Origin: Methanoregula sp.
GTDB lineage: Archaea; Halobacteriota; Methanomicrobia; Methanomicrobiales; Methanospirillaceae
Reading direction: 5' to 3'
NCBI RefSeq assembly: GCF_049510175.1
Contig: NZ_JBEKZF010000003.1
Coordinates: 149,195 to 213,194 of the forward strand
DNA length: 64,000 bases
Part shown: one piece after another, positions 13,375-59,282 of the stretch
How positions within the stretch are numbered: the stretch's first letter is position 1
Layout: each line of letters begins with the position of its first letter
Position numbers and translations under genes: made by a program
Notes under the pieces: model-generated
Seen by the model: only the letters and a program-made list of their open reading frames with translations
The model's database searches: none
What the model was told of the DNA's origin: nothing

Positions 13375-13789
13375 ATGACTGAAGACTCTATGGATATGTT
13401 TGAACAGATGGACGATATGTTCGCCCGGTACCCCGCAGGTTTACGGTTACCGGATCGTCTTCCGCAACGGCGGAACATCCGCCGGGATGGCAGAAATCCC
13501 GGCTATCCCGCCCCGAGCCACCCGGGAACCCGTTACCGAAGTCCATCAGATCGGGAATGAGATCAAAGTGATTATCGAACTTCCCGGAGCAAAGGATGAC
13601 ATGATACAGCTTGAGATAACGGGAAGCACGCTCGTCATCGATGCAAGGGATGCGGATCATCACTACCACACGACTGCATCTCTGCCCTTGGTGGATGCGG
13701 GATCGATGCAGAGATCGTTCAAAAATGGTATACTGGAAGTGACCTTCGGGAACCTTCCGGCTGGTACAACGGTTCCTGGCACGAACTGA
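13375..13789 (+). pseudogene. Hsp20/alpha-crystallin small heat-shock protein, frameshifted near 13427
   Basis: SD GAGGTG and MTEDSMDMFEQMDDMFAR are in one frame; GTPQVYGYRIVF through ELPGA and FKNGILEV (ACD) are in the +1 frame. Confidence 0.7.
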
Positions 13790-14163
13790 ATTTTCTTTTT
13801 TTATCCTTGTCGATCATACCCCCAGTTACGATGAACGCCGCCGTTCCTGAATGGACACACACGAAAAATTCTGATGATTTTCTCTCTCGACAGGATTTTT
13901 TAGAGCGGATTTGTGTTTCTCCAAAAAATGGGATCACGGTCCGGGAAAAAATTTTCAGTCATTCCTATGACACCTGCCAGATCTGCTGAAACGGGAGATC
14001 GGAACATGTGTGTTGATGGCTCCTCCCTTTGACCCAAACTGAGGCAGGTAAGCCGGTACAACAAGATAATAATCCTGATAAACATCGGCATCAAACAACT
14101 ACTCACATCCGGGTGGATATCCCATGGTTGCATGCTCTTTGTGGTAGAGGAAAGTGGTAAGAC

Positions 14164-37816: not shown

Positions 37817-37867
37817 TTGATGAGATCGTTAAACACGATACTGCATAAAACTACTATTCCTGATAAA

Positions 37868-38046
37868 TTACGATAGGTGCCGCTGCCCCCGACGGGATGC
37901 AATCGAAGAATCTTTCGGATTCTTCTCAAGCCAATCGTCGCTGATACGACGATTGTCTCCACGCGGCGGATCGATTACGAATAATCAACAACGCAGATAA
38001 TCAGGCCAGCCGTGCCTCATAGGGGCCCTGAGGCAGGGAGCCATCG
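37868..38046 (+). repeat. Dispersed intergenic multi-hairpin element, copy A
   Basis: Shares TTACGAT, GCCGCYGCCCCCGAYGGG, CGCGGCGGATC and a 38-bp block (32/38 identical) with the copy at 51363-51485. Confidence 0.75.
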
Positions 38047-38110
38047 TAATTATCTTAAAAAAACGTGTTGCAAAAATTTTTCTAAAAACTAATTAGAAAA
38101 AGGAAGAGAA

Positions 38111-49439: not shown

Positions 49440-51232
49440 AACGCGGAAGCACCCCCCCGGACATTCATCTCCTCGATCAGGCAACGGTCAACCAGATCGC
49501 GGCCGGCGAAGTGGTGGAGCGGCCGGCCTCGGTCGTCAAGGAGCTCGTTGAGAACGCGATCGATGCCGGTGCACGGACGATCAGGATCGAGATCCTTTCG
49601 TCCGGAACTGATATACCATCCATCCGGATCACCGATGACGGTACCGGCATGTCCGCCGGGAATGCACTCCTCGCCTTCACTCCCCATGCGACCAGCAAGA
49701 TCGCCGGTATCACCGATCTGGACACGATCAGCACCCTTGGTTTCCGCGGCGAGGCACTGGCTAGCATCGCGGCTGTCTCCCGTGTCACGCTCATCACCCG
49801 GCCCCGGGACGATGACCTTGCGCCCGGAACAAAGATCGTCATCATGGGTGGCGAAGTCGTGGAGAATGTACCTGTCGGTGCTCCCGGCGGGACGAGCGTG
49901 CTTGTCGAGGATATCTTCTATAACACCCCGGCGCGGAAGAAATTCCAGAGAAGCAGGCAGACCGAACTCGCCCATGTCCACGATATGCTTGAAGGTGTCT
50001 TCCTCGCTCACCCCCATATTGCGTTCCGGCTCACGTACAACGGAACGGAACAACTGGTTACTGAGAGGGGCACCTCCCAGCTCGATACCATTGCCCGGAT
50101 CTATGGCGCCGGGCTGATACGGGACCTGGTGCCGGTATCAGTACAGAGCCCTCTCGTGAGGATCGCGGGCCACATCTCCCGTCCCTCGCTCTCCCGCAAG
50201 GACCATGCCCGGATCTTTATCGCGATCAACCAGAGGTATGTCTCCTCTCCCGCGATCACCAACGCAATCAAGGAAGGATACGGTACCCTGCTCCCGAAGG
50301 ACCGGTTTCCGGTGGCGTTCCTCTCGCTCGATATCGATCCGGGGCTTGTGGATGTCAATGTCCACCCGACCAAGAAACTGGTCCGGCTCTCCCGGGAACC
50401 GGAGATCGCCCGGGCCGTCAGCGACGCCGTGCACCGGGCTCTTGCCGGTCACGATCTCATACCCGACATACGGCCACCGGGGCCAGCGCATGCCATCACT
50501 GTCGATACCTCCTTTGGACCGGGACACTCCCGACCCTACCTGCATGATGCAGTCCCGCCCGGGGTTGTCAGCGAACCCACGCATATGGGCACAGTCGGCA
50601 CCGACCGCCAGCTCCGTCGGACTGCGCTGGCACCGGAACCTCTTCCGGCAAGTTCCATCCCTCCCCTCCGGGTCATCGGGGAGTTCGGTGGGATCTATAT
50701 CCTTGCGACAACGGAGACCGGGGAACTCATGGTCATCGACCAGCATGCCGCACATGAGCGGATCCTCTACGAACTTGCGGGACGGAAAGATGAGCGTGAG
50801 AAGCGCGTCCAGGAACTGATCGCCCCCGTAATCCTCCACCGGACACCCCGCGAGAGCGCGATCCTGTCGGAACTCCTGTCGGCGCTTGCAGATGAAGGTT
50901 TTCACATCGAGGAGTTCGGCAGGGATACGTTCGTTGTCCGTGCCATCCCGGTGGTCCTCGGGAAACTCGAAGACACTTCGCTCCTCGAGGATATCATCAG
51001 CGACCTGACAAGCACTGAACGGGGCCAGCGGGTCGACAACCGGGAGCGGATCACCCGCATCGTTGCGTGCCGTGGAGCGATCAAGGCCGGGACGGTCTGC
51101 ACACAGGAGCAGTGCCAGCGTGTGGCCGACCAGCTCCGGTTCACGAAAAACCCCTTCACCTGCCCCCATGGCCGCCCGACCATGATCCGGTTCTCGAAAG
51201 CGGACCTCGACAGTATGTTTAAAAGATCCTGA
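49436..51232 (+). CDS. mutL: DNA mismatch repair protein MutL
   Basis: IAAGEVVERP, ELVENAID, GFRGEAL, DVNVHPTK; endonuclease motifs DQHAAHERILYE, ACR and CPHGRP. Confidence 0.97.
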   Translation: MKRGSTPPDIHLLDQATVNQIAAGEVVERPASVVKELVENAIDAGARTIRIEILSSGTDIPSIRITDDGTGMSAGNALLAFTPHATSKIAGITDLDTISTLGFRGEALASIAAVSRVTLITRPRDDDLAPGTKIVIMGGEVVENVPVGAPGGTSVLVEDIFYNTPARKKFQRSRQTELAHVHDMLEGVFLAHPHIAFRLTYNGTEQLVTERGTSQLDTIARIYGAGLIRDLVPVSVQSPLVRIAGHISRPSLSRKDHARIFIAINQRYVSSPAITNAIKEGYGTLLPKDRFPVAFLSLDIDPGLVDVNVHPTKKLVRLSREPEIARAVSDAVHRALAGHDLIPDIRPPGPAHAITVDTSFGPGHSRPYLHDAVPPGVVSEPTHMGTVGTDRQLRRTALAPEPLPASSIPPLRVIGEFGGIYILATTETGELMVIDQHAAHERILYELAGRKDEREKRVQELIAPVILHRTPRESAILSELLSALADEGFHIEEFGRDTFVVRAIPVVLGKLEDTSLLEDIISDLTSTERGQRVDNRERITRIVACRGAIKAGTVCTQEQCQRVADQLRFTKNPFTCPHGRPTMIRFSKADLDSMFKRS

Positions 51233-51333
51233 CGGATCTTTATAAACTCCTTCGGATGTTTAAATGGTCCTGATGGTTCGCTATAAACTCCTCCGGATGT
51301 TTAAACGGTCCTGAAGGACCGTTATAAACTTCC
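51215..51333 (+). repeat. Three 41-bp tandem repeats, each with an internal hairpin
   Basis: Units start at 51215, 51256 and 51297; consensus ATGTTTAAAnGnTCCTGAnGGnnCnnTATAAACTCC. Confidence 0.85.
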
Positions 51334-51362
51334 ACACGTCGCTACGTTCTGGGATGATGATG

Positions 51363-51485
51363 CGATGCTTCCCCGCCTCAGGGCCTCTTCGAGGCACGGC
51401 GGGGCAAGGAAGTGTCTTTAAATTTGTCATTAGTCACTGATCCGCCGCGGGGCGCCCCATCGGGGGCGGCGGCGTTCATCGTTAT
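51363..51485 (-). repeat. Dispersed intergenic two-hairpin element, copy B
   Basis: GC-rich stems CCCCGCC/GGCGGGG and CCGCCG/CGGCGG; homologous to 37868-38046. Confidence 0.75.
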
Positions 51486-51613
51486 GTCAATGGTACCAGA
51501 CCCCTCATCACATTCTGAATCATAAGTCACTGATATTTGTTATTGACGCAGAACCGCTGTTGCCTTTAGCTTCAGAGTTATACTATTTGGCATATTACCT
51601 GTGAGTACGAAAA

Positions 51614-59147: not shown

Positions 59148-59282
59148 AAGTTTGGTTGCATTAAGGTATTAATGATTGTTTTAACGGGGGAGAGTCGATG
59201 ACCCTTGCGATGGTTCATCGTAACCCGGACAAATTTGGATCCTATGGAAGGGTTTATTCACTCATACCCTGCCTGAAAATGT

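Follow-up and report, generated by a model that had tools for sequence, protein, structure and literature searches.

Two structured repeats in the window

The window, by which we mean the whole 64,000-nucleotide stretch of Methanoregula sp. DNA that was analysed, contains two copies of a hairpin-rich repeat. Copy A (37867-38050, forward strand) is flanked by two convergent genes, and copy B (51361-51484, reverse strand) lies in a second spacer. Re-reading the letters confirmed the positions and ordered layout given for the two copies in an earlier note on this DNA, including the shared 5' motifs, the sequence GCCGCYGCCCCCGAYGGG and the identity of CGCGGCGGATC at 11 of 11 positions.

Copy A lies between inverted ends of its own, each of 8 bp: ATTACGAT at 37867-37874 and ATCGTAAT at 38043-38050. 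Inside these, the 5' strand of a first hairpin module together with its inner hairpin (GCCGCTGCCCCCGACGGG; 37879-37896) pairs with positions 37962-37969 of the 3' strand, which reads CGCGGCGG followed by ATC (37962-37972). An A/T-rich spacer that varies across the family (37973-38003) leads to a degenerate second module (38004-38038; identity to the consensus 0.77), which has an A-A mismatch in its outer stem (CCAGCC/GGCAGG) and a U-G pair in its inner stem. The two extra perfect hairpins that had been reported within this copy are real, and they occupy the bulge on the 3' side of the hairpin of module 1. The first, GAAGAATC-TTTC-GGATTCTTC (37905-37925), belongs to a separate family of small-hairpin repeats; the second, CAATCGTCG-CTGATA-CGACGATTG (37932-37955), was defined by reading the sequence and by folding. 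All of these parts are on the forward strand. The nhmmer match to copy A is C23:187062-187239, which corresponds to window positions 37868-38045 (CM R1, 49.6 bits).

Copy B has a near-consensus core (CM R1, 134 bits; module identities 0.97 and 0.95) made up of TAACGATGAAC, module 1 (51474-51442), a spacer (51441-51406), module 2 (51405-51371) and the terminal CATCGCA (51367-51361). Upstream of the core, on the same strand, is a decayed remnant of the 'module 0' and left arm of a longer composite unit (51485-51520; module 0 identity 0.45), and the composite HMM match at this locus (C23:200714-200549) spans model positions 65-236. The 3' blocks of the two copies (38006-38046 and 51363-51403; 41 nt, 83%) constitute the longest inverted repeat of the window. 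RNA folding predicts two GC-rich hairpins in each copy, with z scores against shuffles of -4.0 for A and -3.3 for B. The two differences between the copies that had been described as preserving pairing are one-sided changes to G-U (T-G) wobbles and are not compensatory. Thus, the A/B pair on its own displays no compensation, and in copy A the second hairpin additionally has the A-A mismatch in its outer stem.

A truncated copy is present at 13767-13850 (forward strand; E = 6.9e-5) and retains the last part of module 0 (CATACCCCCAG), then TTACGATGAAC and the initial 7 nt of module 1, after which the sequence passes into an unrelated small hairpin. The partial copy previously assigned to 13828-13843 is part of this real 5' fragment, and a 16-mer from the element 5' end is found at two places in the window, where 0.08 occurrences would be expected. 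The match of a 12-mer at 59213-59224, which had been listed as a further partial end, is at chance level. It falls in a 19-nt palindrome, TTGCGATGGTTCATCGTAA (59204-59224), in which the element 5' motif abuts its reverse complement and which sits just after the likely ATG start of an open reading frame. The palindrome resembles an 'empty' pair of element ends and is probably a chance occurrence.

The spacer that holds copy B also contains three tandem 41-nt units (51215-51337), all of which have TTTAAA/TATAAA boxes and a hairpin such as ACGGTCCTGAAGGACCGT. These adjoin copy B on its downstream side, at the end of the preceding gene of 599 aa, and together with copy B they make up most of the extra 230-350 nt that this spacer has relative to seven relatives.

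A mosaic repeat family in intergenic DNA

We searched the window's own assembly (2.34 Mb in 41 contigs, 54% GC) using BLAST and iterated nhmmer and recovered about 40 copies of a unit of about 122 nt, so the similarity between copies A and B is not a matter of chance. The unit comprises two GC-rich hairpin modules of 33-39 nt separated by an A/T-rich spacer of 13-60 nt, with TTGCGATGAAC as the consensus 5' end and AGCCCTCGCAA as the consensus 3' end. Module 1 (CGCCGCCGCCCCCGACGGGGCGCCCCCGCGGCG) is a 12-bp hairpin with a C5 bulge, and module 2 (GCCCCGCCGTGCCTCGGAGAGGCCCTGAGGCGGGG) has stems of 7 bp and 5 bp and an invariant GU/CCUGA internal loop.

About 11 of the 40 copies, A among them, contain the identical pair of small hairpins at the identical place in the module 1 bulge. 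Further mosaic variants have more nested inserts, additional hairpins within module 2 or a different module at the 3' end. This alternative module, GGTAAGTGAGTAGCGCAAAACCCGACAGGCGTTTTGCGCGTAAGGCATCGC, replaces module 2 at four sites (C12:333000-333065, 451538-451596 and 453471-453533; C40:54859-54924). The combination of module 1 with the alternative 3' module indicates that modules recombine into several composite types.

The small hairpin cassettes form a second abundant family, with sequences such as TCGAAGAAnn...nnTTCTTCTC, GTGGTTCTGATGAACCAC and AATCGTCGCTGATRCGACGATT, many of them with CTGATG(A) loops. They are found singly, in strings and nested in the loops of cores; the window has them at 37905-37955, stand-alone copies lie elsewhere in the genome, and genome-wide examples include C1:459354-459742, C34:202040-202464 and C40:12063-12499. 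Some repeat is present in about 290 of the 1,359 spacers of the genome.

All but about three of the 40 copies of the two-module family are intergenic. They are over-represented in spacers between convergent genes (19 against 10.5 expected) and depleted from those between divergent genes (3 against 9.3 expected; chi-square p = 0.003). In tandem spacers the two orientations are found 11 and 7 times, which is not a significant difference. The apparent tendency of copies to lie downstream of a same-strand gene (30 of 40) is therefore best seen as a by-product of avoiding promoters.

Distribution and turnover of the family

A covariance model built from nine simple copies detected the family in all 41 sampled genomes of the genus, with between 1 and at least 87 copies in each. 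In an order-wide sample, matches were confined to the window's own family of organisms, plus two isolated ones. The exact 32-mer of module 2 is present in at least 117 public stretches, nearly all of which are titled Methanoregula, Methanoregulaceae or Methanomicrobiales. Our search of the literature found no description of these Methanoregula repeats.

The same 32-mer is also present on MAG contigs labelled Dehalococcoidia, Nitrospirota and Rokubacteria (L129, L157 and L173; JBAZEO010000181.1, CAWFSF010000006.1 and CAWDVE010000010.1). Two of these three contigs are 2.2-2.35 Mb long, close to a Methanoregula chromosome in size. Archaeal DNA that was mis-binned or mislabelled is a likelier explanation for these records than transfer to bacteria.

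Comparison of orthologous sites showed that both window positions are empty in several sister species. At site A the flanking genes are only about 10-40 nt apart in four genomes (G001, G006, G009 and G013). The same site is occupied by module 0 and module 1 in the same orientation in G003, by the whole core in inverted orientation in G007, and by other hairpin repeats in G002 and G014. The site B spacer is 230-350 nt shorter in seven relatives and has no match to the core in any of them. Both window copies are thus lineage-specific insertions. The family is mobile DNA and not a fixed RNA gene.

Carrier units and an IS5-family partner

MITEs are non-autonomous miniature transposons, and the core is found inside units of this type. 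It is carried, in G007 and in 40 copies drawn from some 20 species, within a longer composite unit that reads, in order, left arm (AGGATTTCCCATGAAAATCG...), 'module 0' hairpin (ATGGGGGTTGAGACCCCCATACCCCC), core and right arm (GATTTTCATGGTTCGGGTGTGAAC...GTTCATG..GTTTCTACAGAGCC). The units in sister species are 250-550 nt long and are bounded by 14-bp TIRs (GGCTCTGTWGAAAY) and by target duplications of 8-9 bp, which we found in seven of the eight TIR-bounded units examined. TIRs of 13-14 bp are present in the full-length members of G005, G021 and G037. Three copies in G005 are units of about 540 nt in which the TIRs of this length are perfect (GGCTCTGTTGAAAC/GTTTCAACAGAGCC) and the flanking direct repeats match at seven of nine positions. 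A pattern scan of seven complete or near-complete genomes of the genus showed that TIR pairs 180-550 nt apart are common.

The same ends bound an insertion sequence. Record L121 contains a 1009-bp IS that has TIRs identical to the MITE ends, an 8-bp duplication and a frameshifted transposase, and in record L120 an intact transposase of 305 aa (308-1225) adjoins a TIR. This protein matches Pfam DDE_Tnp_1 (6.6e-24) and scores 217 bits against the NCBIfam 'IS5 family transposase' model, for which the cut-off is 140. Duplications of 8-9 bp suit the ISH1 and IS903 groups of the IS5 family. A point against this link is that the IS5-type transposase was seen in few genomes; MAGs, in which IS copies assemble poorly, make up most of them. 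A tblastn search identified no homologue of the 305-aa protein in the window's genome. The earlier statement that no transposase is nearby holds for the genome as a whole, and the partner transposase is present in sister species.

The only clean TIR-bounded unit that we found in the window's genome is a 271-nt MITE at C1:472585-472855, whose 14-bp TIR (GGCTCTGTAGAAAT) and 9-bp duplication (TAATTCCCG) are both perfect. It does not contain the two-hairpin core and has no matching transposase in the genome. A 441-nt MITE in G021 is equivalent to a 209-nt MITE plus a 232-nt block of arms and core. Comparison of these two units places the insertion of the block just inside the TIR, so the system is nested. 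The presence of the arms and core as an insert within a MITE raises the prospect that the core may have, or may once have had, mobility of its own.

At copies A and B themselves we detected no IS5-type TIRs and no recognisable target duplication, only weak inverted ends of 5-8 bp. Several other copies in this genome retain decayed arms that are recognised by the composite-unit profile. The assignment of the window copies to the family thus rests on the shared core and on the decayed arms of these other copies. The proposal of an undescribed, dispersed, MITE-like family is borne out by its multiple copies, its genus-wide occurrence, its presence or absence at orthologous sites, and the TIRs and duplications of its full-length members, which match those of an IS5-family IS.

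An IS6/IS26 partner, suggested by the resemblance of the TIR to GGNNCTGTTGCAAA, was ruled out, the partner being of IS5 type. No CTGTTGMAAM ends were found at PF13610 (IS240-type) loci in eight genomes. The window's genome has a 394-aa open reading frame (C41:49551-50735) in which an N-terminal SWIM-type zinc finger motif (CTCPDF...CKHIHAV) is combined with a DDE domain of IS240 type (PF13610, E = 3e-14). It has relatives in 8 of the 41 genus genomes, and no TIRs were identified.

The nesting of the core within the MITE could also be read in the opposite sense, with the core as an independent REP/BIME-like palindromic unit (TTGCGATG ... CATCGCAA) that has its own enzyme and for which residence in IS5-type MITEs is secondary hitch-hiking. 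The behaviour of the arms and core as an insert is what such a unit would show, and many copies have neither arms nor TIRs. The inverted ends TTGCGATG/CMTCGCAA are weak in the family as a whole and perfect over 8 bp in copy A, and the TTGCGATR start is common to other module combinations. The modules are conserved in the manner of recognition sites, and the copies, like REPs, are extragenic and depleted near promoters. However, a search for the Y1 transposase (PF01797), which gave the expected positive results in control genomes, had no matches in the window's genome and matches in only 5 of the 41 genus genomes, none of them with a high copy number. An origin from RAYT or IS200-IS605 elements was rejected on the same grounds, and the single good TnpB of the genome is far from every copy. 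Moreover, the inverted ends do not co-vary (in G007, TTATGATG at one end faces CATCGCAA at the other), and core-only copies are not accompanied by a consistent flanking duplication. We consider an independent REP-like origin unlikely. Of the earlier description of the elements as REP-like, only the resemblance survives, as the defining Y1/RAYT transposase is missing here and in 36 of the 41 genus genomes.

Conservation of the hairpin core

We scored each region of the composite unit against the genus consensus, both in this genome and in about 20 other species (values given in that order). Module 1 (0.95 and 0.95) and module 2 (0.92 and 0.93) stand apart from the left arm (0.51 and 0.61), module 0 (0.60 and 0.60), the spacer (0.66 and 0.66), the 3' linker (0.59 and 0.63) and the right arm including the TIR (0.61 and 0.72). 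The coding DNA of the species compared is only about 70-80% identical to that of the window. Compared with the ends that the transposase requires, the hairpin core is far better preserved.

An alignment of 61 copies, which leans towards structure because it was fitted to the covariance model, has 96.7% of stem cells paired and 8 pairs changed on both sides. None of the 500 shuffles and none of the slid controls equalled these values for pairing and double changes. An example comes from the inner stem of module 2, with U-A in 48 copies, C-G in 9, U-G in 2 and G-C in 1. True double changes are seen only across the family as a whole. In module 2 the unpaired bases vary no more than the paired ones. 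Together with the pairing, this indicates that the hairpins are constrained in sequence and pairing alike. The outer closing helix CCATGAAAATCG/CGATTTTCATGG was rejected as an RNA stem, since the differences between species break its pairing and do not compensate.

A DDE transposase requires only the TIRs, and so does not account for the core being the best-kept part of the unit. One tentative possibility is that the core is a module under purifying selection throughout the genus, either bound by a conserved protein of the host or the element, or acting as a structured nucleic acid at gene ends, and that it rides on its IS5-type carrier and outlives it. If true, this would account for about 95% core identity across about 25 species with genes that are about 75% identical, while the transposase-binding ends decay.

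Tests of RNA-level readings

The structure of the core could alternatively reflect a family of functional ncRNAs, or of 3'-UTR RNA structures acting as stabilisers or terminators, that is selected locus by locus. Consistent with this, both window copies fold well by the z scores given above, the stems co-vary, inserts are tolerated only in loops and bulges, and gene 3' ends are enriched beside the element. In addition, the spacer has an A run of at least 5, read on the opposite strand as a T run that follows module 2, in 14 of 31 and 7 of 9 copies against a background of 10%. Nevertheless, no Rfam 15 family matched at its gathering score, and a permissive search returned only chance-level hits, all below threshold, with a best E value of 0.59. 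Orientation in tandem spacers is random, there is no conserved promoter, the loci differ between species, and a scan for bacterial-type terminators identified nothing at either window copy. Among the stem mismatches G-U is not clearly commoner than A-C (20 against 20 in this genome, and 33 against 21 in the comparison of species), and the unpaired bases are invariant to the same degree as the paired ones. Locus-by-locus selection of functional RNAs is, in our judgement, very improbable, and the ncRNA interpretation in the earlier note is unsupported by the missing Rfam match, the lack of an orientation preference in tandem spacers and the balance of G-U to A-C.

Several more specific readings were also set aside. 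Searches for tRNA and tmRNA found none. Inspection ruled out a K-turn for the module 2 internal loop, which has GU on the non-bulged strand where GA is required, and a promoter in the spacer, where the A/T box is so near module 2 that a transcript could not begin at the 5' end of that module. The elements do not form integron-like cassette arrays, as the copies stand behind ordinary operons and not in gene-element arrays.

Origin and significance of the elements

Copies A and B are probably immobile relics of the GC-rich central core of units from a MITE family, mobilised by an IS5-type transposase, that is specific to Methanoregula and close Methanoregulaceae. On this account, an IS5-family transposase supplied in trans would have cut and pasted the units into A/T-rich spacers, and the purging of insertions beside promoters would have left the excess of copies behind genes. 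Loss of the transposase from this genome could then have rendered the copies immobile and allowed their arms to decay, while the hairpin modules may have been held by purifying selection for a role at the DNA or RNA level. The likeliest candidates for this role would be a protein-binding palindrome or a transcript-end hairpin.

Methanoregula is a globally important genus of peat and freshwater methanogens, and the family accounts for a large share of its repeated, hairpin-rich spacer DNA. Recognising the family guards against annotating these spacer repeats as new RNA genes. It also ties the repeats to an IS5-family element and provides markers for strain typing and MAG binning. If the conservation of the core reflects a function for the host or the element, the family would be an archaeal case of a functional module borne by MITEs.

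Comparison with known repeat systems

REP/BIME elements and REPINs of proteobacteria are mobilised by RAYT Y1 transposases. Like the Methanoregula repeats, they are GC-rich imperfect palindromes with variable linkers that form mosaics, are extragenic and enriched behind genes, and are conserved in tens of copies across the species of a genus. The Methanoregula family differs in having neither an accompanying Y1 transposase, RAYT or otherwise, nor a conserved 5' tetranucleotide of the GTAG type, and in having a DDE-type MITE as carrier and an archaeal host.

The Correia elements of Neisseria (CREE/NEMIS) are likewise MITE-type spacer repeats whose interiors are structured, and they have been proposed or shown to affect transcripts. 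They have 26-bp TIRs and a TA duplication, and we know of no partner IS for them, whereas here the TIR, duplication and partner IS are of IS5 type.

Archaeal MITEs, such as SM1-SM4 of Sulfolobus and the MITEs and PATEs of haloarchaea, do not transpose autonomously and depend on resident IS transposases acting in trans. The Methanoregula repeats resemble them as non-autonomous elements in archaeal genomes that are served by IS transposases, but they are linked to a different IS family and differ in sequence. To our knowledge, an ultra-conserved internal hairpin pair has been described for none of these archaeal MITEs.

IS5-derived prokaryotic MITEs share with the present family short, non-coding, multi-copy units, presence or absence at orthologous sites and, in full-length units, duplications of 8-9 bp and 14-bp TIRs that match exactly the ends of a 1-kb IS encoding a DDE_Tnp_1/IS5-family transposase. 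Unlike such MITEs, the window copies have neither TIRs nor duplications. The TIRs are usually the best-kept part of a MITE, whereas the best-conserved part here is an internal double hairpin that is unrelated to the IS, in units that are mosaics with nested hairpin inserts.
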